Numbered from the stretch's first letter, positions 1 to 11,085 are shown. The stretch: DNA of 64,000 nucleotides from an uncultured Pseudomonadota bacterium (GCA_900320405.1 OOHM01000001.1:203191-267190), one strand, 5' to 3'. The notes: generated from the sequence alone by a model not told the origin. Translations and numbers: made by a program.

Positions 1-677
1 AAGAAATTGACGGTTCTACAATATTTGTATCAAATAATAAACGCGATATACGTCAAATGGTCTTGGACGATTTAGGCGTAAGTTATCGGGCAAATAATTT
101 ATGTGCAATTGCAGAACATATAATGAACAATCCAATTGATATCGCATATAACAAGACGGACAAGAAATTGTTTGTTGTTATGTCTAATGGAGAAATTGCC
201 GTATTAAATCGAAATGTTGCGTTGGGAATTTCTGCGTGGGGGCATTATATGACCGCAGGTGATTTCAAATCTGTTGCGGTGTCAAATGACAAAACATATG
301 TTGTGACCGAACGAGATTCAAATTTTATTTTTGAAAGATTCGATGATTCGGAAATGATTGATTCGGACGAATATTCATATACTTCGCGTGCATGCGGGTT
401 GCCAATAATGACATCGGGTCATAACGCAAAATATGTAAGGATTAAAAAGATTATTGCACGTGTGCACGATTCAAAAACTTTATTTATAAACAATTTTCGA
501 ACCACATTCCCAGATGAAGTATACACCCCCGATGTATCCGGATTTTCGGGGGATATATCGGTAAATGTCTTGGGGACACTGCGTGATATGGTGGACAGTC
601 CATGGGAAATATCAACAAATGATGAATTACCGCTTACGGTTTTGTCTGTGACCGTATATGGGCGGTATCAAATATAA
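1..677 (+). CDS. hypothetical phage-associated protein; reading frame is open to the window edge, so the 5' end may be truncated
   Basis: ORF 57..677 in track. The frame upstream of the ATG has no stop back to nt 3. It lies directly upstream of the terminase-like genes. Confidence 0.35.
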   Translation, partial: EIDGSTIFVSNNKRDIRQMVLDDLGVSYRANNLCAIAEHIMNNPIDIAYNKTDKKLFVVMSNGEIAVLNRNVALGISAWGHYMTAGDFKSVAVSNDKTYVVTERDSNFIFERFDDSEMIDSDEYSYTSRACGLPIMTSGHNAKYVRIKKIIARVHDSKTLFINNFRTTFPDEVYTPDVSGFSGDISVNVLGTLRDMVDSPWEISTNDELPLTVLSVTVYGRYQI

Positions 678-692
678 ACAAAAGGATAAGAA

Positions 693-1040
693 ATGGGACA
701 AGTTATTACAGATGTAAAAGATATTCTGGATTATCAAGATGGCAAGAAAAAGACCGCAACAACCAGAAAAGAAATTATCAGGCAAATGGCGATTGATGAA
801 AAAAACAAACAAAATTTGGTAAACAAGGTCTTGGCGACCCAACGTGCAAAATATGGCGCATCCGGAATGAAGCCCCAAGGGCAAACAGAAGATGCGGTTT
901 TGGCACGATTAAAAGAAGAAACCGAAAAACCATATAACGATAAGCGTCAATCTAATTTGCAAAAATTACAAAATGCGCGCACCAGGAAAAAGAACCTGAT
1001 ATTGGCGGCGTTGGAACATATGGAAAAATTGGTCGGGTAA
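693..1040 (+). CDS. hypothetical small basic protein, possible terminase small subunit given its position
   Basis: 115-aa ORF immediately upstream of and abutting the terminase ATPase fragment. Lys/Arg-rich. No motif recognised. Confidence 0.3.
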   Translation: MGQVITDVKDILDYQDGKKKTATTRKEIIRQMAIDEKNKQNLVNKVLATQRAKYGASGMKPQGQTEDAVLARLKEETEKPYNDKRQSNLQKLQNARTRKKNLILAALEHMEKLVG

Positions 1041-1041
1041 A

Positions 1042-1635
1042 ATGACGGAATACAACCAATTTTTGGATTCTTGGAATTCTGTATTGGGATTGAATACACC
1101 ATCACACCATCACCGTATGACAGATTTTCTAACGGAAGTGTTAAATAATGGGAATCATCGCGGGTTGCTGATGGCGTTTCGGCATTCGGGTAAATCCACC
1201 ATCGTCGGCATTTTTGCGACATGTGTCTTGTTTTTGCGACCCGAAACGCGAATACTGATTTTGTCTGCGCAAACGCACCAGGCCACCAGAATGGTTATGC
1301 ATATAAGAAATATTTTAGAAAATCATCCGTGGTGCCAAAATATGATTCCAAAAAATCGTCGGGAATGGGCCGAAAATAAAATTACCATCAATCGACCGAT
1401 TGGTATTCGTGAACCATCCGTTATATGCCAAGGCATATATGGCAACATAACCGGTATGCGCGCAGATTTGATAATTTGTGATGATGTCGAGGTTCCAAAT
1501 ACATGCAACACCGCACGAAAACGTGCGGCGTTGCGTGAAAGGTTGCGTGAATTAGATTTTGTGTTGGCCCCAACCGGCACAATGATTTATATCGGTACAC
1601 CACACACATTGGATACCATATATCGTACGACCTAG
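1042..1635 (+). pseudogene. phage terminase large subunit, N-terminal ATPase fragment (truncated)
   Basis: Walker A-like FRHSGKST and Walker B-like LIICDDVE in the order typical of a terminase. The ORF stops right after the IGTPHT motif. The remainder of the terminase resumes at ~5000. Confidence 0.55.
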
Positions 1636-2288
1636 GCTTCAGAATTTATATGTGCCAAAGAACTTGTAATCTTGTGCAATTTGTGCAACAACGTTCTGCC
1701 TTCATCACCAAACATCGGCAGATATGTTTCGTAATCTGGCATATCAACTTGAAGTTGTGCACGTGCCCGTTCATTGATTGGTTTGGAAATAATATCGTTT
1801 GCGCTTTCCCAAAGGCTGTACGCCCGCCAAGTGCGAACAATCGTATCAAATTTTTTCAATTCTTCGGGATGATTGTTCAATATGTGTTTTATGGAAACCG
1901 CCCATTCGGGACCAAATCCACGAACAACCGGCATCTGCATAAATTGCTGTAACGCGTCTTGGTCCGGTTCAAAATTATTAATTGCAGATATCAAATCATC
2001 TAAATCGTCGTTTGATATATCGGTCGCGATTGCGGGTTCGTTCATCATACCACCATATGGCAACAATTCACGCGCAATAGAATTCATTGGTGTTTTACCG
2101 TCGCGCAAATTTTTTATATGTTGTACCAACATTTTTCCGGTCGGTAAATCTGCCATTTCGGTCAGAACTTCGTCGGTGGCTTCGTCAACAAAGACACGAT
2201 TTACCGCGCCCCATCCGCCGACGATAACATGCGCCTGACGGTAAAGATTTAACAATTTTTGTGCGATTACACTTGCTTTGGCTTTCAT
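1632..2288 (-). CDS. hypothetical protein (218 aa)
   Basis: Long ORF on the opposite strand within the block that interrupts the terminase. No recognisable motif. Confidence 0.4.
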   Translation of the reverse strand: MKAKASVIAQKLLNLYRQAHVIVGGWGAVNRVFVDEATDEVLTEMADLPTGKMLVQHIKNLRDGKTPMNSIARELLPYGGMMNEPAIATDISNDDLDDLISAINNFEPDQDALQQFMQMPVVRGFGPEWAVSIKHILNNHPEELKKFDTIVRTWRAYSLWESANDIISKPINERARAQLQVDMPDYETYLPMFGDEGRTLLHKLHKITSSLAHINSEA

Positions 2289-2315
2289 CTCGTTTAATCC
2301 CCCCGTTGGTTAATG

Positions 2316-3326
2316 TTATTCTGTTGTGACCATAATAACCTTGTGCATGGTTTGTGCAGAAATTTTTTCTTCTGGTGATACCATTTGACCATAAATTTGA
2401 CCTTTGGAATCTTGGCGCACAACGGCAATGTTTGCAACCACCGTTTGATCATCGCGCAGTGTTTTGAAATCTGCATCAACGAATACCGCCAAATCACCAA
2501 CCGCGGGCACAGATTTAACATCGGCAAAAACATAAGACTTTGCCGGGATGAACCCGCCCAAACGTTTAGAATTCGGGATAAGCGCATAAACGCCACGGCG
2601 ACCTTCAAGATTTGCGGGTGCGGCAATCATTGTTTTATCAGATTTTTTGAATGCGATTGCTTTGCCTTCGGGTTTACCGAACACCGGAATCAATTTTTTG
2701 CGTGCATTGTCATACAATTTTGCACCATATAAATGACCCTGCATATCGCCCAAATCTGCGGCAGAATCACCCGGTACCAAAACCGCCTTGACACGTTCTT
2801 TGACCTTGTTCATTTGTTTGGCAAGTTCGCCCGATTTATACAGGTCTGCGATTCTATCGAACATACCGTCCACAGAATACGCAAACGATTTTGCCAATGG
2901 TTCGATTTCGTTTTTGTATATTTCACGTTGACCGACCTCTATTTTGTGATAAACGGACAGGGTCATCCCTGCATCCTTGGCGGCCTGGGCAATGGTTTTT
3001 CCGGCCTGTTGGCGTATCTTGCGCAGACCACTGCCAAACACTTTCAAACCACTGTCTTCATTATCGTTCATACGGCGTTTGATTTCATCTTGCCATTTGG
3101 TTGCGACTTCGTCCGTGTCTTTGATGAATATATCGGACAGTTTACAACCCAATATATTACAGATATTCAACAATTGTTTCTGGTTTAGACGACGCACACC
3201 CTTTTCAATCTTGGAAACCGCCGACAGCGACAGCCCCGACCGACGTGCCAATTCGGTCATTTTCATACCTGCGCCCAGGCGAATGTTTCGAATATTGTTT
3301 GGAAAAATGATTTCTTCTTGGGCCAT
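2316..3326 (-). CDS. CI-like transcriptional repressor with tandem XRE-family HTH domains and a degenerate S24-peptidase-like C-terminal domain
   Basis: Two HTH_XRE-like segments (MTELARRSGLSLSAVSKIEKG and AQAAKDAGMTLSVYHKIEVG). The C-terminus has a GDLAVFVD-like segment resembling the LexA/CI fold but lacks a clear Ser-Lys dyad. Confidence 0.55.
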   Translation of the reverse strand: MAQEEIIFPNNIRNIRLGAGMKMTELARRSGLSLSAVSKIEKGVRRLNQKQLLNICNILGCKLSDIFIKDTDEVATKWQDEIKRRMNDNEDSGLKVFGSGLRKIRQQAGKTIAQAAKDAGMTLSVYHKIEVGQREIYKNEIEPLAKSFAYSVDGMFDRIADLYKSGELAKQMNKVKERVKAVLVPGDSAADLGDMQGHLYGAKLYDNARKKLIPVFGKPEGKAIAFKKSDKTMIAAPANLEGRRGVYALIPNSKRLGGFIPAKSYVFADVKSVPAVGDLAVFVDADFKTLRDDQTVVANIAVVRQDSKGQIYGQMVSPEEKISAQTMHKVIMVTTE

Positions 3327-3430
3327 ATAAAACTCCTTAGATAAATCTTGACAAAATCATAGTCAATTTTAGAAAACTTGGCAAGGAAAAATTTTACCAA
3401 CCATCACCAACTAATAACACCGACCAGTAT

Positions 3431-4981
3431 TTATATATCCATATCGTCGGGGATTTCGGTCAAATCAATAGGTGCCGCATCGTCGGATTGTGGCACAGGT
3501 GCGTTTTCTTCGGCAAATTGTATATGACCACGATTTGCCATTTCATTCAGGTTATCAAACAAACTGAATTCCGGCAAAAACGCCACCCGTATAGTATCGG
3601 TTTTCCCGTGACGGTTTTTCCCGATGATAATATCGGCCTTGCCTTTGGCTTTCTCCATACGATTTTGCCACGAATCAACAGATTTTTCATTTGGGGTGTT
3701 TGATATGCGATATGACGGGTCGCGATTTGCCAAATAGTATTCTTCGCGATATGTGAACATAACAATGTCGGCATCTTGTTCAATAGACCCCGATTCACGC
3801 AAATCCGACAATTGCGGGCGTTTATCATCACGCATTTCAACACTGCGTGATAATTGGGACAGGGCAATAACCGGAACATCGAATTCTTTGGCCAACATTT
3901 TAAGACCGCGCGTAATTTCCGACAATTCTTGAACACGATTGTCTTTGTTTTTACCGCCCGGTGAAGTCAATAATTGCAAATAGTCAATCACGATAAGTGC
4001 AATTCCGTTATATTTGCGGGCCAATCGGCGCACACGTGTGCGAATCATTGGAACCGACATACCCGGCGTATCATCTATGAACAATGGAATACGACCAATG
4101 GCATCTGCAAACTGGGTCATTTTAAGGAAATCTTCATCGGTCAACGACCCGGCCAGCATGGCATTAGAAGGTATTCGTGACTGTGAAGACAGCACGCGTG
4201 CCGCCAATTCAGATTGGTTCATTTCTAAACTGAAAAACGCGACCGCACCAGTGTATTGTGGATTTGCACGTCCCGAAAATATTGCGTTTGCCGCATTAAA
4301 TGCGATATTCATCGCCAATGTGGTCTTACCCATACCTGGACGTCCCGCGATAATAAGCAGATTCGATTTATGCAAACCACTAATGGCCTTGTCTAAATCG
4401 GTCAGACCCGTTGTTAATCCGGACAATTTGCCGTCCGCCTTGTACGCGATTTCGGCCTCAATCAGTGCGCTTTTCAATGCGGTTGCAATTGGTGCGACAT
4501 CGCGTCCAATATCGCCGGTTGTTGCCATATTGAATAACATTTGTTCGGCGTTTTCTATTTGTGATGCGACCGGTTTATCTAAATCTTCGACAAATGCGTC
4601 GTCGGTTATTGTCTGGCCAATTTGAATCAGTTCGCGTCGCATTGCGTTTTCGTGAACAATTCGACCATATTGTTCAACATTTACGACGGTTGCCCCCGCA
4701 CCCGCCAATTGTGTTAGATAATCTATTCCGCCAACAGATTCCAATGTTCCCTGTTGGTCCAGATAGTTTTTAACGGTGATTATATCAAACGGAATTCCGG
4801 CCGCGAATTGTCGCAACGCCAAACGATAAATTTCTTGGTGCGCGGGATGGGAAAAATCTTCGGCCCGCAAGAATTCAGAAATTTTTTCTAATGCACGATT
4901 GTTGGTCAGCACCGCGGCCAACACGGCTTGTTCGGCCTCTATATTCGTTGGTAAAGTTTTGGGAGTAAAGTCCATGTCCAA
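3431..4981 (-). CDS. dnaB: replicative DNA helicase DnaB
   Basis: 516 aa. N-terminal DnaB domain and RecA-like core with Walker A GRPGMGKTT. Acidic C-terminal tail as in alphaproteobacterial DnaB. Confidence 0.85.
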   Translation of the reverse strand: MDMDFTPKTLPTNIEAEQAVLAAVLTNNRALEKISEFLRAEDFSHPAHQEIYRLALRQFAAGIPFDIITVKNYLDQQGTLESVGGIDYLTQLAGAGATVVNVEQYGRIVHENAMRRELIQIGQTITDDAFVEDLDKPVASQIENAEQMLFNMATTGDIGRDVAPIATALKSALIEAEIAYKADGKLSGLTTGLTDLDKAISGLHKSNLLIIAGRPGMGKTTLAMNIAFNAANAIFSGRANPQYTGAVAFFSLEMNQSELAARVLSSQSRIPSNAMLAGSLTDEDFLKMTQFADAIGRIPLFIDDTPGMSVPMIRTRVRRLARKYNGIALIVIDYLQLLTSPGGKNKDNRVQELSEITRGLKMLAKEFDVPVIALSQLSRSVEMRDDKRPQLSDLRESGSIEQDADIVMFTYREEYYLANRDPSYRISNTPNEKSVDSWQNRMEKAKGKADIIIGKNRHGKTDTIRVAFLPEFSLFDNLNEMANRGHIQFAEENAPVPQSDDAAPIDLTEIPDDMDI

Positions 4982-5822
4982 TATAGTATATGAAAAAAAT
5001 GTTTTTTCAACGCCTTTTTTATGTGGCTATGCCGAATTAAAAATTCCGATAATGGATGGGTGCGGAAATTCGGCGTGGCCGGCGATTTTTCCGCCCGAAA
5101 AAATTGCCCAAATTCGGGAAACGGTTGGGGAACGGCATTTTTCTGCACAAATGATGTTGGAATATGTTGCGCCCGATAAAATCCGTCTTGACCCTGGAAC
5201 CGTACATTTTTATACGGACGAATTCGACCCGCATACCGCGCGCATTGGCGAACATTTAATATCGGGTGCGGCCATTTATTGGGACCCGTCGGGGGGTCGG
5301 CGCGGCGGCGATAACAGTGTATGCGTTCTTGTCTATCGCGATGATAACAATCGATGTGTATTTATACACAATATAATGTACATCGTCGTCCCAGATGAAA
5401 CAGATTACCCATTGGCGTATCAATGTGACCGGGTTATCGATTTTGTTCGTCACAATCGTTTGCGCCAAATCACAGTAGAAACGAACGGTATCGGTGGCGC
5501 GTTGCCCGAAATTATGCGTGACATTATAAAGCGTGGCGGTGGCGGAATAACCCTTAATTCGATAACAAATTCGCGACGCAAAGAAGATCGCATATTGGAC
5601 GCATTGGAACCATTAATGTCAACGGGTCGATTGTTTGCACATCGGCGAATCACCCAGACCCCATTTATATCGGAAATGTTGGCTTGGTCGCCAATGGGCG
5701 GTGCCGAACACGATGACGGATTGGATGCGGCGGCCGGTGCAATTGCGTGCACGCCGATACCGGTGCGACCAATACTTGGTGGCGTGCCACGATATACCGC
5801 AAATACAGATTTCAAAATTTAA
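4899..5822 (+). pseudogene. phage terminase large subunit, C-terminal nuclease fragment (true start uncertain, probably ~5040)
   Basis: FSAQMMLEYV motif and an RNaseH-like nuclease region with conserved acidic residues (DPSGG...D, HDDGLDA). Continues the reading logic of the 1042..1635 fragment. Confidence 0.55.
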
Positions 5823-5843
5823 CACACAACAAAAGGATAAAAT

Positions 5844-7070
5844 ATGAAATATGATTTACAACAAATGTACATTCGCGCGATAAATATGCGTGAACCTTGG
5901 ATACGGCGTTGGGCGGATGCGCGCCGTTATACGATGCCCACAACGGATGAAGATTTGGCAACACTGTTTGACGCGACCGCATCTGATGCGGCGGCGGGTT
6001 TGGCGGCGTGTATGTATTCATTACTGACACCGCCAGAATCTTTGTGGTTGAACCTGGTTCCGGAAAGTCCGGATTCGCCCGACCCGGCGGTTGCGACGGC
6101 CGCATTGCGTGCAAATTTGAATGATTCGAATTTTTACACCACGATTCATCAATGCTATATGGATTTGGTGACATTGGGCACGGCGTGTCTGTTTATGGCG
6201 GAATCGCCGATTGGCGCGTCCAGTGCGTTTACATTTACCGCGATTCCAATTACAGACATTGCGATTTTGCCGAACGCGATATTCCATACTGCGACGATTT
6301 CCGGGGCGGAAATTCTGCGCCGATATCCGGAATGGACGCCGCCACGCGATATTGCGGAAAAAATAAAACAAGATGGCGAATATCAAATGCGTCTGGTTCA
6401 ATCTTTGGTTGATACAGATTTTACCGCATGGGTTGATGTTGGTGGTGATTTTGAAAACAATGTAGTGGCACGCGGAACATTTGAAACGAATCCATATATA
6501 ATTTTCCGTTGGTCGGTCGCCAGTGGCGAATTATACGGCCGTGGACCGATTCTGCGCGCATTGCCAGATATTAAAACGGCGAACAAAGTCGTAGAATTGG
6601 TTTTGAAAAACGCAACCATCGCGGTCAGTGGCATATGGCAGGCCGATGATGACGGCGTCATAAACCTTGGCAATATCAATTTGACCCCCGGTGCCATTAT
6701 TCCCAAAGCGGTGGGCAGTTCGGGTTTGACCCCACTTGCATCGGGTGCAAATTTTGATGTGTCGCAAATCATTTTGAAAGATTTGCGCGAACGCATAAGG
6801 CACACATTATTGGCGGACAGAATAGGGCTGTTGTCTGACAAAGAAATGACCGCGACAGAAATTTTGGCACGCAATGCGGATATGCTGCGTATTTTGGGTG
6901 CAACATATGGACGGTTATTGCACGAATTTATTCGGCCCCTGTGTGACCGCGGATTGCAAATATTGGCGCGTCGCGGCGTTATCGATAAAATATCGTTGCA
7001 CGGGGATGCAGAATTAAAATACATTGCACCAATCGCACAAATGGTTTCTGAAAATAATACATTGATTTAA
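5844..7070 (+). CDS. putative phage portal protein
   Basis: 408-aa ORF directly downstream of the terminase nuclease fragment, with a phage-like SD. Assigned from position and size. No strong motif. Confidence 0.4.
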   Translation: MKYDLQQMYIRAINMREPWIRRWADARRYTMPTTDEDLATLFDATASDAAAGLAACMYSLLTPPESLWLNLVPESPDSPDPAVATAALRANLNDSNFYTTIHQCYMDLVTLGTACLFMAESPIGASSAFTFTAIPITDIAILPNAIFHTATISGAEILRRYPEWTPPRDIAEKIKQDGEYQMRLVQSLVDTDFTAWVDVGGDFENNVVARGTFETNPYIIFRWSVASGELYGRGPILRALPDIKTANKVVELVLKNATIAVSGIWQADDDGVINLGNINLTPGAIIPKAVGSSGLTPLASGANFDVSQIILKDLRERIRHTLLADRIGLLSDKEMTATEILARNADMLRILGATYGRLLHEFIRPLCDRGLQILARRGVIDKISLHGDAELKYIAPIAQMVSENNTLI

Positions 7071-7081
7071 CGGGGGCAACA

Positions 7082-7288
7082 ATGGAACGCATAGAAATTG
7101 CATACGCACGAACATTTGGATGCGCATCGGGTGCGGTCGTATTGGAACACCTGCGGAAAATGACGATTGAACGTGCAATGGGGCCAAATGCAACGGACAA
7201 CGAACTGCGATGGTTGGAATCCCAACGCGCATTGGTCCATAAAATTGAACAATTGGTATTACGGGGGCGTGAAAATGCAAAAACATAA
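7082..7288 (+). CDS. small hypothetical phage protein
   Basis: 68-aa ORF following the portal gene. Confidence 0.3.
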   Translation: MERIEIAYARTFGCASGAVVLEHLRKMTIERAMGPNATDNELRWLESQRALVHKIEQLVLRGRENAKT

Positions 7289-8047: not shown

Positions 8048-8467
8048 ATGAAACAAGCATTATTCATTGGTGTAATTGCATCAATATTAACAATCAATTC
8101 AGTTTTGGCGGATACAACCGTCACATCCAAACAATATGTTGATACTGAGGTCGCAAAAAAGCAAAACAAAATCGAATCCGCAATGGTGAAAGACGTATAT
8201 ACCAGTATCGCATCATATGATGACGAAGGCGGGTTGGTTGCAAATAAATTTGGCATAATTACCGAGGAAAGTCTCTTTGAGGATGAGATACCATTAAACT
8301 TTTATCTTAGTGCAGATGATGAGATAACTGCTTTTGCCGACAAGATGGTTCCAACCGTCGCGGCGGTTGTTGGAGAACTGTGGAATTACCAGCAGAGACT
8401 TACCTGTGCCGGGTGGCCGGATGGTGTGTCACATACGGATGAAAATTGTTGGCTGTGGAGCAAATAG
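8048..8467 (+). CDS. secreted protein, paralog family A (signal peptide, YVDxExAxKQ N-terminal motif, C-terminal TCxxWxDxxxHTDxNCWLWS)
   Basis: Signal peptide MKQALFIGVIASILTINSVLA. Shares both terminal motifs with the protein at 29636..30346. Confidence 0.6.
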   Translation: MKQALFIGVIASILTINSVLADTTVTSKQYVDTEVAKKQNKIESAMVKDVYTSIASYDDEGGLVANKFGIITEESLFEDEIPLNFYLSADDEITAFADKMVPTVAAVVGELWNYQQRLTCAGWPDGVSHTDENCWLWSK

Positions 8468-8868: not shown

Positions 8869-9690
8869 TTAAAATGCGTAAGATTTCGCCGCAAAATTAT
8901 CGGTCGCGCTTTGAATATTTTCCGAATTGTCTTCGGCGTTTCGGCCACAATCAACCAATTCCAATTCACCATAGTACGCGGTCATCATCGGGTCGTATGA
9001 ATTGTCCGAACTGACCCATTTATCGGTATCTGAATTTGGATTACCGTATTTATCCAACACATTTTGCCACCAAGCCCAGATTTTTTTATCGCGTTGGTTT
9101 GCAAACTTTTCTGCGTCGCCTTCGACTTCATCGACATCATTTTTATAAACGATTTTCCATGCGACATTGTCGGTGGCGTTGCTGGTAAAATAAACATCGA
9201 TTGTTTCACCCGTGACACCACGCACCAAATGCAGTTCAGATGCATACATAACACCACGATTGCGCGCCAAAGAATTTATGCACGCGTCCAATTTTGCCGG
9301 GGCGTACACACCATTGCGCCGGCATTCGTAGTCAAGGTTGTATTTCCAATCCGGATGTATGGTATAAATAACGCTATTCTTCGGTCGATTCACATACAGA
9401 CCATTTTCGCGCGCGACCAATTGTGCCTCGTCAAAACTCATTCCCAACATTATGCCTGCAATATCAAACCCGGAAACCGCGGCGGGATTGTCACCGGCGT
9501 TTATCGATACCACGCCCGCACTGCACGCGTTGTTGCCATCTTCATTTGTTTCAATCGTATATTCATCAAAGTTATCGTATTCTTGGGCCTCGGGGAATCC
9601 TTCATAGTCAAATTCGTCTTCGGCCGGCGCAACAAACGGATGCGCCACAACGACGCACATAACACATAATAGCATCCATAAACGTTTCAT
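8869..9690 (-). CDS. secreted hypothetical protein (273 aa) ending in Phe
   Basis: Signal peptide MKRLWMLLCVMCVVVAHPFVAPA. Acidic N-terminal region. Cotranscribed downstream of the VirB8-like pair. Confidence 0.45.
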   Translation of the reverse strand: MKRLWMLLCVMCVVVAHPFVAPAEDEFDYEGFPEAQEYDNFDEYTIETNEDGNNACSAGVVSINAGDNPAAVSGFDIAGIMLGMSFDEAQLVARENGLYVNRPKNSVIYTIHPDWKYNLDYECRRNGVYAPAKLDACINSLARNRGVMYASELHLVRGVTGETIDVYFTSNATDNVAWKIVYKNDVDEVEGDAEKFANQRDKKIWAWWQNVLDKYGNPNSDTDKWVSSDNSYDPMMTAYYGELELVDCGRNAEDNSENIQSATDNFAAKSYAF

Positions 9691-9695
9691 ACCTT

Positions 9696-10349
9696 TTATT
9701 CCCCACCAAACATTACATCTGATACCCGAAACACAAACACAACCGCCGGATCAATTCCCATCTTTAACGCCCGTTGCACCGCATCGATATCGCTTTTCAA
9801 CCGACCGATTGTGCCGGCATCTTCGATTTTTATGTACATTGTGCCACGCGTGACCGTCGGTGGTGTGCCCATATCATTTGGTTTATACCACGTTTTTAAT
9901 TCATAATCAACATGCCAATAATTACTGTTTTCGGGCTTAAAGATTTCGTTAAAAACCCGAACCGTTCGGCGCGCGCCATTTGACGCCAATTCGCGAATTT
10001 CGGGCACAACATTCTGTTCCCATGCGCGCGCAACATTCGCCGCAGACATAATTCTTATATTTGCGGTGTTTCCGCGTGTGCGTCGCGCAACATTTTCAAC
10101 ATCGGGAATTACATAGAAATATTCCATAACAAATTTTTGAATTAACCAATCCCGCATTCTGCGTTCACCAACCTCGGCAAGATTGCGTGGCATACCGGTT
10201 TGATTAACCGCGCTTAACCCCGTGCGAAAGAAATATGGTTCAACCGTCACTTTGTTGCCCGTATCATATATCGCACCTGCGATATAAATCATCGCGAATA
10301 CGGCGAATATGGTCACCAATCCGATAATATATCCAATCAGTCGTTTCAT
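9696..10349 (-). CDS. VirB8-like bitopic membrane protein (T4SS component family), paralog 2
   Basis: N-terminal TM helix followed by VEPYFFRTG (a VirB8 PYxVxVD-like motif). Shares the ARAWE motif with the adjacent paralog. Confidence 0.4.
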   Translation of the reverse strand: MKRLIGYIIGLVTIFAVFAMIYIAGAIYDTGNKVTVEPYFFRTGLSAVNQTGMPRNLAEVGERRMRDWLIQKFVMEYFYVIPDVENVARRTRGNTANIRIMSAANVARAWEQNVVPEIRELASNGARRTVRVFNEIFKPENSNYWHVDYELKTWYKPNDMGTPPTVTRGTMYIKIEDAGTIGRLKSDIDAVQRALKMGIDPAVVFVFRVSDVMFGGE

Positions 10350-10350
10350 A

Positions 10351-11085
10351 TTATTCCCTGTACGCGTTAAAACCCGTTATATAGTATCCCAATGTTTGCG
10401 GATACCGTGCGACATCATATGCAACCTTGACATATGCAATGATATCAAAATGGCCGTTTATATTGGAATAAACACGCGCCCGCGCCACCCACGTGCCACC
10501 ATTTGCGGTGATTTTTCCGCCACTGAAAACGGTAATTTTGTTTGGGTCAATATACCACCGTTCACCGGCCGATTCGTATGCACGGTATTGTGGCAACACA
10601 TCTGTCACAAAATTTTGATACATCCCTTCACCCGAAATGCAGTATATATCGCACCCATCAACATTCGCGAATGTATTTGGCACGTGTCGCGTGCATTCTG
10701 TTTCGCGATTGCACCGTTCCCACGCGCGTGCATTTTTTTGTGCATTGGCGGAAATTGTAAACCATTTTTCGGTGAAAATCCCGACCAATGCGCGTTGAAC
10801 AGATTGATAGTAAGGAATGTTTTTTTCGCCCAATGGCCGACCAACCAATTGCCATTCGCCGCGCGTACTGTCTACATATATCACAAACGGATTTACCGTC
10901 TGGTTCGTGCGCAACCACGGCAAGGCGACACAAAAACCGATGATAATCAAAAATGCCACCGCAATCCATATGCCCATTGTTCGGGAAACGGCGACCCGTT
11001 TTCCCGCCGGAAACGCGGAATTTTCAAAATCATCTGGGTAATCCAATGTTCTCTCCCCAAAATATGGTGTGCACAATCCGCGCAA
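10351..11085 (-). CDS. VirB8-like bitopic membrane protein (T4SS component family), paralog 1
   Basis: 37-aa cytoplasmic N-terminus, one TM helix, then LPWLRTNQTVNPFVIYVDSTRGEWQLV, matching the VirB8 LPxxxxVPYxVRVDxxTG pattern. The C-terminal LGYYITGFNAYRE resembles VirB8 NPLGFxVTSYR. Confidence 0.5.
   Translation of the reverse strand: MRGLCTPYFGERTLDYPDDFENSAFPAGKRVAVSRTMGIWIAVAFLIIIGFCVALPWLRTNQTVNPFVIYVDSTRGEWQLVGRPLGEKNIPYYQSVQRALVGIFTEKWFTISANAQKNARAWERCNRETECTRHVPNTFANVDGCDIYCISGEGMYQNFVTDVLPQYRAYESAGERWYIDPNKITVFSGGKITANGGTWVARARVYSNINGHFDIIAYVKVAYDVARYPQTLGYYITGFNAYRE

Follow-up and report, generated by a model that had tools for sequence, protein, structure and literature searches.

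The locus considered here raises the question of whether a phage terminase gene that is cut in two by opposite-strand genes, the replicative helicase gene dnaB among them, is the relic of a disrupted prophage, as an initial annotation had proposed, or part of something that its host maintains. It lies in a 64,000-nt stretch of DNA (the window) from an uncultured Pseudomonadota bacterium (GCA_900320405.1 OOHM01000001.1:203191-267190), the host being Candidatus Enterousia of the order Rs-D84, Alphaproteobacteria of the gut and rumen. Enterousia, of which no culture exists, has genomes of about 0.75–1.0 Mb with a coding density of about 90% (PMC12306168). The window takes in the right-hand part of a podovirus-like cluster, roughly 9 kb in all, of T7/BPP-1-like head, tail, packaging and lysis genes (endolysin, scaffold, capsid, adaptor, nozzle, large terminase subunit TerL, portal), with the following features.

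1..677, plus strand: C-terminal part of the tail nozzle (tubular B-like); phrog_376 tail protein
693..1040, plus strand: p115, basic, 115 aa; position kept in all loci; dN/dS 0.29
1042..1635, plus strand: TerL-N, ATPase core, 197 aa; profile matches and motifs; dN/dS 0.043
1632..1635, junction: left junction CTAG, overlapping stop codons of TerL-N (plus) and ORF218 (minus)
1632..2288, minus strand: ORF218, 218 aa, clade-restricted, all-alpha; 1051 homologues; dN/dS 0.12
2316..3326, minus strand: HTH336, tandem XRE-type HTH regulator, 336 aa; two HTH_3 domains; dN/dS 0.059
3348..3384, minus strand: promoter-like site of HTH336, TTGCCA-17-TATGAT, with inverted repeat TTGAC-N9-GTCAA over the -10 box; motif scan
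3431..4975, minus strand: dnaB, replicative helicase of cellular alphaproteobacterial type; NF006606 and TIGR00665; dN/dS 0.034
4973..4976, junction: right junction CATG, overlapping divergent start codons of dnaB (minus) and TerL-C (plus)
4974..5822, plus strand: TerL-C, 282 aa, with post-motif-III region, RNaseH-like nuclease and C-terminal tail ANTDFKI; profiles; dN/dS 0.095
5844..7070, plus strand: portal, T7-type head-to-tail connector; PF12236, E=1.5e-75; dN/dS 0.039
7082..7288, plus strand: Bbp19-like small phage protein; PF25181
7275..7532, plus strand: p85, small, with a hydrophobic stretch, final gene of the cluster; gene call in the related locus L001; present in all loci; dN/dS 0.092

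The nozzle gene (568 aa) starts upstream of the window and is complete in L001 (7930-9636); a terminator-like hairpin (I1) lies 3' of p85. The portal expected behind the nuclease half is indeed there, as the PF12236 match shows. In 80/80 species-level genomes the cluster has one and the same order, lipB being followed by endolysin-sm62-scaffold-capsid-p76-adaptor-nozzle-p115-TerL-N-(ORF218, HTH, dnaB; minus strand)-TerL-C-portal-Bbp19-p85, and the same host genes border it across the loci compared. A compositional anomaly of the cluster was looked for and not found. No integrase, excisionase or phage polymerase/primase occurs in the precomputed Pfam annotation of genes called in loci of ±10 kb, nor any integrase or phage replication gene among the window ORFs scanned against profile families. 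A small terminase (TerS) was not recognised among the cluster genes; p115, which gave no family match in Pfam and PHROG profile scans, is a candidate for either an internal virion protein or the small terminase. The cluster lacks large internal core (ejectosome) proteins of the T7 kind, and the sub-lineage to which the window belongs has no tail-fibre gene, a gene that is variable or absent across relatives. The p139 frame (8048..8467) was considered as a tail fibre and set aside: it shows no relation to the Mtd_N-type fibre found in relatives, and no family matched it.

By profile and alignment evidence, 1042..1635 and 4974..5822 are consecutive, non-overlapping parts of one T7-type TerL, the family represented by NF033889 and by PF03237 plus PF22530. 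TerL-N matches positions 275-459 of 760 in phrog_38 and 2-190 of 500 in the NCBIfam model termin_lrg_T7, and TerL-C continues with positions 483-701 and 334-500, respectively, and additionally matches the Pfam T7 RNaseH-like terminase domain (PF22530, E=1.1e-9). Against the cut-off of 150 bits for T7-type TerL (NF033889), TerL-N reaches 227 bits; TerL-C alone, at 117 bits, stays under this whole-protein threshold because it is only part of the protein. When joined, the halves give a single alignment over 97% of the length to a T7-like phage TerL and align across the junction to the solved T7 gp19 structures 4bij and 8dgc. Compared with unsplit relatives (460-515 aa), not one residue is lost or gained at the break, and the sum of 197 + 282 = 479 aa equals the length of these relatives. 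The same-family consecutive profile positions, together with the joined alignment, bear out the initial proposal that both halves belong to one terminase. The single polypeptide of about 470-590 aa that is usual for T7-type TerL is thus replaced by two ORFs, set apart by a 3.34-kb gap that opposite-strand genes fill. The catalytic equipment is complete: Walker A (FRHSGKST), Walker B (ICDDVEVPN) and motif III (IGTPH) of TerL-N are invariant in 83 sequences, as are the acidic nuclease motifs YWDPS, ETNG and DDGLDA of TerL-C in 71. TerL-N ends 9 residues past motif III, and the region with which TerL-C resumes would, judged by its position, be the ATPase lid. Identity to the TerL of isolated phages is 26-28% at best and nowhere above 28%.

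The break is delimited to the nucleotide. The nuclease half has the orientation first ascribed to it, with its start moved from about 5000 to the ATG at 4974; a 307-aa frame from TTG 4899 was rejected for TerL-C as an over-extension into dnaB. The coincidence of breakpoint and stop codons noted at 1632/1635 holds for the left junction, where two convergent stops overlap in CTAG; at the right junction, CATG unites two starts. The left junction is a 4-nt YTAR overlap in most species, the spacing ranging from -87 to +9 nt; the right CATG is kept in 72/74 species. A conserved ribosome-binding motif (GGAG/GGGG) is placed 9-13 nt upstream of the TerL-C ATG, within dnaB codons 3-5, and TerL-C appears to be translated independently from this site and its own ATG. 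A promoter-like site for dnaB lies within the first TerL-C codons, ending 7 nt before the ATG. Match counts in promoter and terminator scans were not above chance, a conserved terminator at the convergent (left) junction was not detected, and direct or inverted repeats of an attachment-like kind did not exceed chance at either junction. A strong 13-bp hairpin at 1505-1534, in TerL-N and 3' of ORF218, was discarded as an embedded terminator, its pairing being confined to the window's closest relatives.

The block between the halves has the composition first described, namely a gene of no known kind, a tandem-HTH regulator and a cellular-looking dnaB, all on the minus strand. The 1051 homologues of ORF218 are unnamed, or "hypothetical" wherever the source gives a name, and its AF2 model (pLDDT 82) matches no fold in PDB or BFVD. 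HTH336 carries HTH_3 stretches at residues 12-65 and about 97-150 (Pfam). The degenerate S24 domain initially ascribed to its C-terminal part was not detectable: Pfam gave no S24 match, and no PDB profile matched outside the HTH domains; comparison with LexA returned an hhalign probability of 1.3%, the C-terminal domain is modelled by AF2 at low confidence (pLDDT mostly <50), and the candidate catalytic Ser253 is neither invariant nor nearly so. The inverted repeat at the HTH336 promoter is present in 62/78 species and, within ±10 kb, is confined to that promoter apart from a single stray half-site in one locus (L087); it is likely an autoregulatory operator. A shared operator linking HTH336 to the structural genes was therefore dismissed, the palindrome occurring only at the HTH336 promoter. 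DnaB is full-length (PF00772 and PF03796 both match) and scores 593.6 bits against the cellular equivalog NF006606 (cut-off 540; coverage 19-491 of 497) and 505.4 bits against TIGR00665 (cut-off 385.25). It is also a strong match to phrog_19, and reaches 403 bits with the phage_DnaB model TIGR03600, under the cut-off of 498.65. A phage-derived, recruited DnaB, the other origin initially envisaged, finds no support in scores that exceed the NF006606 threshold and fall short of that of TIGR03600. The 64-kb window contains no second dnaB.

The age of the arrangement is evident from a census of 254 related loci. All 242 judgeable loci with a TerL-N identity of at least 62% have the same split and hence TerL as two ORFs; in 175 of them both halves flank a minus-strand dnaB, and in the other 67 the contig stops short of the C half. 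Every unsplit locus has a TerL-N identity of 51% or less, and the loci of unsplit relatives have no DnaB beside TerL. In the deep lineage L172/L175 (62% identity) the gene is broken at the same residue and dnaB is present with other companion genes; HTH gene and ORF218 are absent, and dnaB does not adjoin TerL-C. Synonymous divergence among species is saturated. In addition to the dN/dS ratios listed above for TerL-N, TerL-C and portal, those of capsid (0.074) and nozzle (0.093) are low, the comparison genes being DnaB (0.034) and lipB (0.098): the cluster is under purifying selection comparable in strength to that on dnaB. Capsid identity (80-95%) matches or exceeds DnaB identity in most of 80 loci. 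Pairwise distances of the main structural and packaging genes correlate with those of DnaB/lipB at a Spearman rho of about 0.6-0.8 (0.3-0.5 for Bbp19 and p85), and the two TerL halves diverge in step with the portal (rho 0.72 and 0.80). All genomes of the clade that were examined carry this ancient split as a fixed trait, and the cluster is vertically inherited. The description as a disrupted prophage does not survive this comparison of terminase–portal synteny: the split is fixed, and strong purifying selection acts on halves and structural genes alike; therefore the element is maintained and domesticated, not a wreck. Of the marks of a temperate prophage, integrase, flanking repeats and variable presence are all missing, the locus being the same in 80/80 species genomes. 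What is seen instead are features by which gene transfer agents (GTAs) are recognised, that is, a structural and packaging cluster devoid of integration and phage replication functions, at a fixed locus, vertically inherited in a host clade and under purifying selection. Neutral retention of phage genes over about 9 kb is unlikely because the host genome is small and about 90% coding. In one species (L048) most of the capsid, tail, TerL-C and portal genes are gone while the block remains, so that either the cluster is dispensable or the L048 assembly is faulty.

Several other explanations were weighed against this evidence. That a decaying prophage had its terminase killed by a recent insertion or rearrangement, the halves being pseudogene fragments, is suggested by the physical interruption of the gene, by the large deletions in L048 and by the listing of these regions in IMG/VR as predicted viral. 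It is rendered highly improbable by an identical split in 242 loci of many species at saturated synonymous divergence, by open frames, full sets of catalytic motifs and dN/dS of 0.04-0.10 in both halves, and by the strong streamlining of the host genome. An on-demand rejoining of the gene, whether through splicing of a group I/II intron, through a split intein or by excising the block at specific sites, is next to negligible in probability. Other bacteria do have elements that are excised during development. In phages with known split terL genes, splicing of group I introns restores the gene (PMC12880540); here, however, coding genes of the opposite strand take up the whole gap, no Rfam intron matches even at E<=1, neither end has surplus residues for intein halves, and flanking direct repeats and a recombinase gene are lacking. 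The conserved stop of TerL-N and the separate start signals of TerL-C also speak against rejoining, and excision of the block would remove dnaB. The block might alternatively be the lysogeny and replication module of the ancestral phage, whose helicase replaced that of the host. DnaB-like helicases and XRE/CI-type regulators are common in phages, the phrog_19 match is strong and the block sits inside a phage-derived cluster; still, we regard this origin as very unlikely given a DnaB above both cellular cut-offs and below that for phage_DnaB, the L172/L175 lineage that has dnaB and lacks the HTH gene and ORF218, unsplit relatives that have no DnaB beside TerL, and an ORF218 that has no viral fold match.

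Two further proposals concern function. The structural genes could have been co-opted for a use other than packaging, such as a killing particle or a capsid-like compartment that stays empty, with the TerL pieces serving in separate ATPase or nuclease roles. A TerL in two pieces, the missing TerS and large ejection proteins, and a fibre gene that is variable or absent would fit such a use, which we nevertheless judge unlikely: portal, ATPase and nuclease motifs of TerL and its C-terminal tail are jointly under strong constraint, and the divergence of the TerL halves follows that of the portal. A regulatory device, in which start overlap and convergent transcription (interference or antisense RNA) couple particle production to the shut-off of replication, has in its favour that the CATG overlap is nucleotide-exact where the left junction is loose, that the promoter-like site of dnaB falls within the first TerL-C codons, and that the convergent junction is free of a conserved terminator. 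It is considered doubtful, for promoter-like matches are no commoner than chance, gene overlaps are frequent in streamlined genomes, dnaB and TerL-C do not adjoin in L172/L175, and the HTH operator is found only at its own promoter and not at the structural genes.

On the collective evidence, the locus is probably an anciently domesticated, vertically inherited, GTA-like cluster of podovirus type with a two-chain terminase. To arrive at it, the TerL gene would have been broken once, in the ancestor of the clade, at a variable loop 9 residues past ATPase motif III, with host genes placed at the break in opposite orientation and dnaB as the constant member of the block. From then on the pieces would have been kept as genes translated separately, TerL-N with its own stop and TerL-C with its own ribosome-binding site and ATG. 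Both pieces are intact in all related genomes examined, from which it follows that the enzyme probably functions in the form of two separate chains; these may bind each other non-covalently and so form a functional packaging enzyme, which would fill the capsids encoded by the neighbouring genes, with particle production and DNA transfer as the presumed outcome. To our knowledge, no TerL is known to function as two chains, and a literature search turned up no case of a working two-chain TerL; the ATPase and nuclease domains of T4 gp17, expressed apart and mixed, reportedly did not restore packaging. That dnaB is nested here most likely reflects a tolerated rearrangement, later locked in because dnaB is essential, and overlapping divergent starts with convergent transcription could possibly have a regulatory role. 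The far-reaching version, an undescribed podovirus-type gene-transfer particle of Rs-D84/Enterousia with a two-chain motor, in which the dnaB nesting is a switch, by overlapping divergent starts and convergent transcription, that lets a producer cell either replicate its chromosome or package DNA but not both, appears unlikely.

Our analysis has importance in several respects. If the halves work together, they constitute a natural experiment in which a packaging ATPase-nuclease is functional though cut after motif III, and such a two-chain TerL bears on the communication between ATPase and nuclease. The cluster is probably a new domesticated phage-particle system in gut Alphaproteobacteria with genomes of about 1 Mb that are apparently partner-dependent, and the about 1% of the genome kept for phage genes suggests an important role, for example in DNA exchange or partner-cell interaction. 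An essential host gene has become locked within a phage-derived operon, an arrangement that resembles the herpesvirus UL15 locus and arose independently of it. The IMG/VR listing of these chromosomal regions as viral means that a host dnaB locus is mislabelled by virus-prediction pipelines.

Comparison with known systems places the locus among GTAs with qualifications. Like FpGTA of Faecalibacterium (PMC12946183) and the RcGTA-type agents of Alphaproteobacteria, it occupies about 9-10 kb of the chromosome as a compact set of TerL, portal, scaffold, capsid and tail genes, lacks integrase and phage replication genes, and is fixed between host genes, vertically transmitted and under purifying selection. 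It shares podovirus-type parts with FpGTA (PMC12946183), whereas it is not homologous to the siphovirus-like RcGTA and belongs to a different host clade with 1-Mb genomes. It differs from GTAs in that two genes, enclosing the host dnaB, encode TerL and that no TerS was recognised. Motifs, domain order and C-terminal tail are those of T7 gp19 (NF033889; 4bij, 8dgc), but the Enterousia TerL consists of two polypeptides cut after motif III and retains only 26-28% identity to isolated phages. In jumbo phages of the Jug group, terL is likewise distributed over two or more ORFs (PMC12880540), yet these fragments are same-strand, co-transcribed and group I intron-spliced, with homing endonucleases in the gaps, and Enterousia has no intron. 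Herpesvirus UL15, whose exons flank the opposite-strand UL16 and UL17, offers the parallel of a terminase ATPase gene in two coding blocks, in which lineages differ in gap content but share the split (PMC3079670). The herpesvirus mRNA is spliced to encode one protein, in contrast to Enterousia, where there is no splicing, two proteins are expected and an essential host gene lies in the gap. UL15 is interrupted between Walker A and Walker B, and the UL15 and Enterousia splits are therefore independent events.

On the strength of sequence comparison, the large terminase (TerL) of this locus is understood as a conserved, selected two-gene terminase with the host dnaB nested between its genes. The initial annotation had described a prophage terminase gene split into an ATPase and a nuclease half by an opposite-strand block; the split itself stands, at ORF positions borne out by the ORF calls, and its interpretation is right in part.

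Features of the split terminase locus and order of the surrounding gene cluster
1042..1635, plus strand: TerL-N, 197 aa, N-terminal ATPase part of T7-type large terminases
3348-3384, minus strand: promoter region (sequence-predicted) of the regulator gene HTH336, unusually well conserved across species
dnaB, minus strand: 514-aa DnaB
Cluster, left part: lipB, then endolysin, 62-aa protein, T7-type scaffold, capsid, p76, adaptor-like p172, nozzle
Cluster, right part: p115, TerL-N, then ORF218, HTH336 and dnaB (all minus strand), TerL-C, portal, Bbp19, p85, host genes

In profile searches, TerL-N covers positions 275-459 of 760 in phrog_38, with a further match to PF03237, and positions 2-190 of 500 in NF033889 (227 bits, cut-off 150); the plus-strand ORF ending at 5822 covers positions 483-701 and 334-500 of the two profiles, respectively, and also matches the T7 RNaseH-like terminase domain. 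Profile positions are thus consecutive, and the joined translations align as one piece to T7-like phage TerL (97% of length, 26-28% identity) and, across the break, to the solved T7 gp19 chains 4bij and 8dgc, confirming the two ORFs as halves of one terminase. The break reads GTPHTLDTIYRTT, a stop codon, then MSNIVYEKNVFSTPFLCGYAELKIPI, where one unsplit relative has GTPHCHDSLYNYSQNPAEPAFLQEFHRLYLPI. Since alignment to the unsplit relatives (460-515 aa, at most 51% identity) reveals no residues lost or gained, the break is placed in a variable loop, 9 residues past motif III. At the left junction, CTAG (1632-1635) is common to two convergent stop codons; at the right, CATG (4973-4976) is common to two divergent start codons, which sets the start of TerL-C, previously put near 5000, at 4974. 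A 13-bp GC-rich hairpin lies within the TerL-N coding sequence (1505-1534) and is limited to the window's closest relatives.

The intervening genes proved to be those expected from the first inspection, that is, a gene without family match, a tandem-HTH protein and dnaB, all on the minus strand. ORF218 gave no family match in profile searches; its predicted model is confident and all-alpha, with no fold match in a structure search. HTH336 (336 aa) has two HTH_3 domains, and no S24 match was obtained for its C-terminal domain from Pfam, a PDB profile search or hhalign against LexA. An inverted repeat, TTGAC-N9-GTCAA, lies over the -10 box of the HTH336 promoter region in 62 of 78 species and within ±10 kb is confined to it. 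Its conservation at the gene's own promoter region suggests that HTH336 regulates its own gene; an operator link to the structural genes was not found within ±10 kb. At one related locus, the HTH regulator gene (L045:11278-12282) carries a single in-frame stop codon, reflecting a pseudogene or a sequencing error. DnaB is cellular in look, as had been proposed: it passes the cut-offs of NF006606 (593.6 bits vs 540) and TIGR00665, and stays below that of phage_DnaB (403 vs 498.65 bits). NF006606/PRK09165 is the alphaproteobacterial DnaB type. A second dnaB was not found within the 64-kb window.

Many metagenomic contigs encode an identical TerL-N protein. Scanning of one genome per species yielded 80 loci (TerL-N identity 69-94%) from rumen and faeces, named Candidatus Enterousia or 'Alphaproteobacteria bacterium', one of them on a complete circular chromosome of 958,618 bp. 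Enterousia, a member of the order Rs-D84, has genomes of ∼0.75-1.0 Mb with a coding density of ∼90% and is described as partner-dependent (PMC12306168). Comparison of terminase-portal synteny among relatives, which the initial annotation had called for, gave the same order and a single architecture in 80/80 loci, with host genes at both ends, and scans of IMG/VR and metagenomes gave the same picture. In a census of 254 loci in total, both halves flank a minus-strand dnaB in 175, at a distance of 3276-4601 bp (median 3345 bp); in 67 the gene is split and the contig stops short of the C half. TerL is unsplit in 7 loci, every one with TerL-N identity of at most 51%, and 5 could not be judged, the contig ending just past TerL-N. 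The deep branch L172/L175 (62% identity) is broken at the same residue, with dnaB adjoining TerL-N, and is devoid of ORF218 and HTH336; its gap holds an 834-aa protein for which no family match was found. In L181, the strand of the ORF218 and HTH genes is reversed. A split shared with the deep branch despite differing gap content implies that the TerL break is one old event, with dnaB the constant occupant and the other gap content variable. Between TerL-C and portal, L172 (10850-12425) and L175 additionally carry genes for a ParA-type ATPase and for a pilin-like protein with an N-terminal methylation motif, indicating host gene entry at more than one point of the cluster.

Pairwise dN/dS (Nei-Gojobori; pairs with dS 0.1-1)
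TerL-N: 0.043
TerL-C: 0.095
Portal: 0.039
Capsid: 0.074
Nozzle: 0.093
HTH336: 0.059
ORF218: 0.12
DnaB (housekeeping): 0.034
lipB (housekeeping): 0.098

Synonymous sites are saturated in most pairs, hence divergence is deep. Neither the ATPase motifs (Walker A, FRHSGKST; Walker B, ICDDVEVPN; motif III, IGTPH) nor those of the nuclease (YWDPS, ETNG, DDGLDA) vary among the 71-83 sequences compared, and the C-terminal tail ANTDFKI is common to split TerL and unsplit relatives. For most of the 80 loci, capsid identity (80-95%) equals or exceeds DnaB identity. Pairwise distances of TerL-N, TerL-C and portal co-vary with one another, and those of the phage genes track DnaB and lipB to roughly the degree that DnaB tracks lipB, consistent with vertical co-inheritance of the cluster with host genes. 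Gene calls surrounding the cluster contain neither an integrase nor phage replication genes, the block has no att-like repeats on its flanks, and base composition is unremarkable. One species (L048; JAZLBQ010000007.1, 9635-14574) has capsid residues 1-69 fused directly to TerL-N and TerL-C residues 4-89 fused directly to Bbp19; the portal and the tail genes are gone, and little is left of TerL-C and of the stretch from capsid to p115, with dnaB, HTH and ORF218 kept, by natural loss or through a collapsed or faulty assembly.

The CATG overlap of dnaB and TerL-C starts is found in 72/74 species, and the ATG of TerL-C is preceded at 9-13 nt by a GGAG/GGGG motif within dnaB codons 3-5; TerL-C is therefore translated from a start of its own. 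At the other junction, overlap of the stop codons (YTAR) is frequent and less strict. A promoter-like site for dnaB falls within the first TerL-C codons, such matches being not above chance. RNA splicing is excluded by a gap full of antisense genes and devoid of Rfam intron matches, and protein splicing by a split intein is excluded because there are no surplus residues able to form intein halves. Excision of the block, which would rejoin the gene, is unlikely: neither repeats nor a recombinase are present, the TerL-N stop codon is conserved, and dnaB would be removed with the block. With splicing excluded and excision unlikely, we infer that the TerL-N and TerL-C chains most likely assemble non-covalently.

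Several further genes accompany the cluster. In L005 (9496-10044) and about half of loci L012-L091, an additional gene (182 aa) separates p115 from TerL-N and matches phage tail fibres (phrog_1640) in their N-terminal region, which serves tail attachment; the gene is absent at 1040/1042 and from the window's sub-lineage, with no copy elsewhere in the 64 kb. Upstream of the window, between scaffold and capsid genes, L001 encodes an Ala-Lys-Lys-Pro repeat protein (5735-6037; at 5708-6007, a 15-nt unit is repeated in tandem ∼20 times), followed before the capsid gene by a 17-bp hairpin (6089-6129). MAG JAZTWT01 has one cluster copy on each of contigs 2 and 11 (L053 and L065; TerL-N identity to the query 73% and 72%), representing two copies in one genome or a bin of two mixed species. 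Directly past the cluster, a poorly conserved 139-aa protein with a signal-peptide-like start (8048-8467) has no family match and is unrelated to the relatives' Mtd_N-type fibre gene near the same position. Three conserved minus-strand genes adjoin bamA (8869-11085), two of unknown function (273 and 217 aa) and one VirB8-like by a weak match (244 aa); a 1431-aa ORF (18872-23167) has no Pfam match. A ComM/YifB-type Mg-chelatase-like ATPase is encoded at 24201-25721 (minus strand). Uptake of DNA from RcGTA, a known gene transfer agent (GTA), depends on several competence proteins of the recipient, ComM being one of them, so that the persistence of this gene in a 1-Mb genome may be of relevance.

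A two-gene TerL with dnaB nested in it will surprise phage specialists and is open to direct testing. Phage-like elements of Enterousia did not turn up in our literature search, and the account of its genomes does not mention phages (PMC12306168). The surrounding cluster resembles a GTA-type domesticated phage element and is probably GTA-like; the podovirus-like FpGTA of Faecalibacterium is the closest described analogue in form (PMC12946183). Split terL genes of phages are rejoined by group I introns (PMC12880540), a restoration not seen here. The closest architectural parallel to the split TerL is herpesvirus UL15, where opposite-strand genes lie between the two exons and vary from one subfamily to another (PMC3079670); unlike the Enterousia TerL, UL15 is spliced into a single protein.
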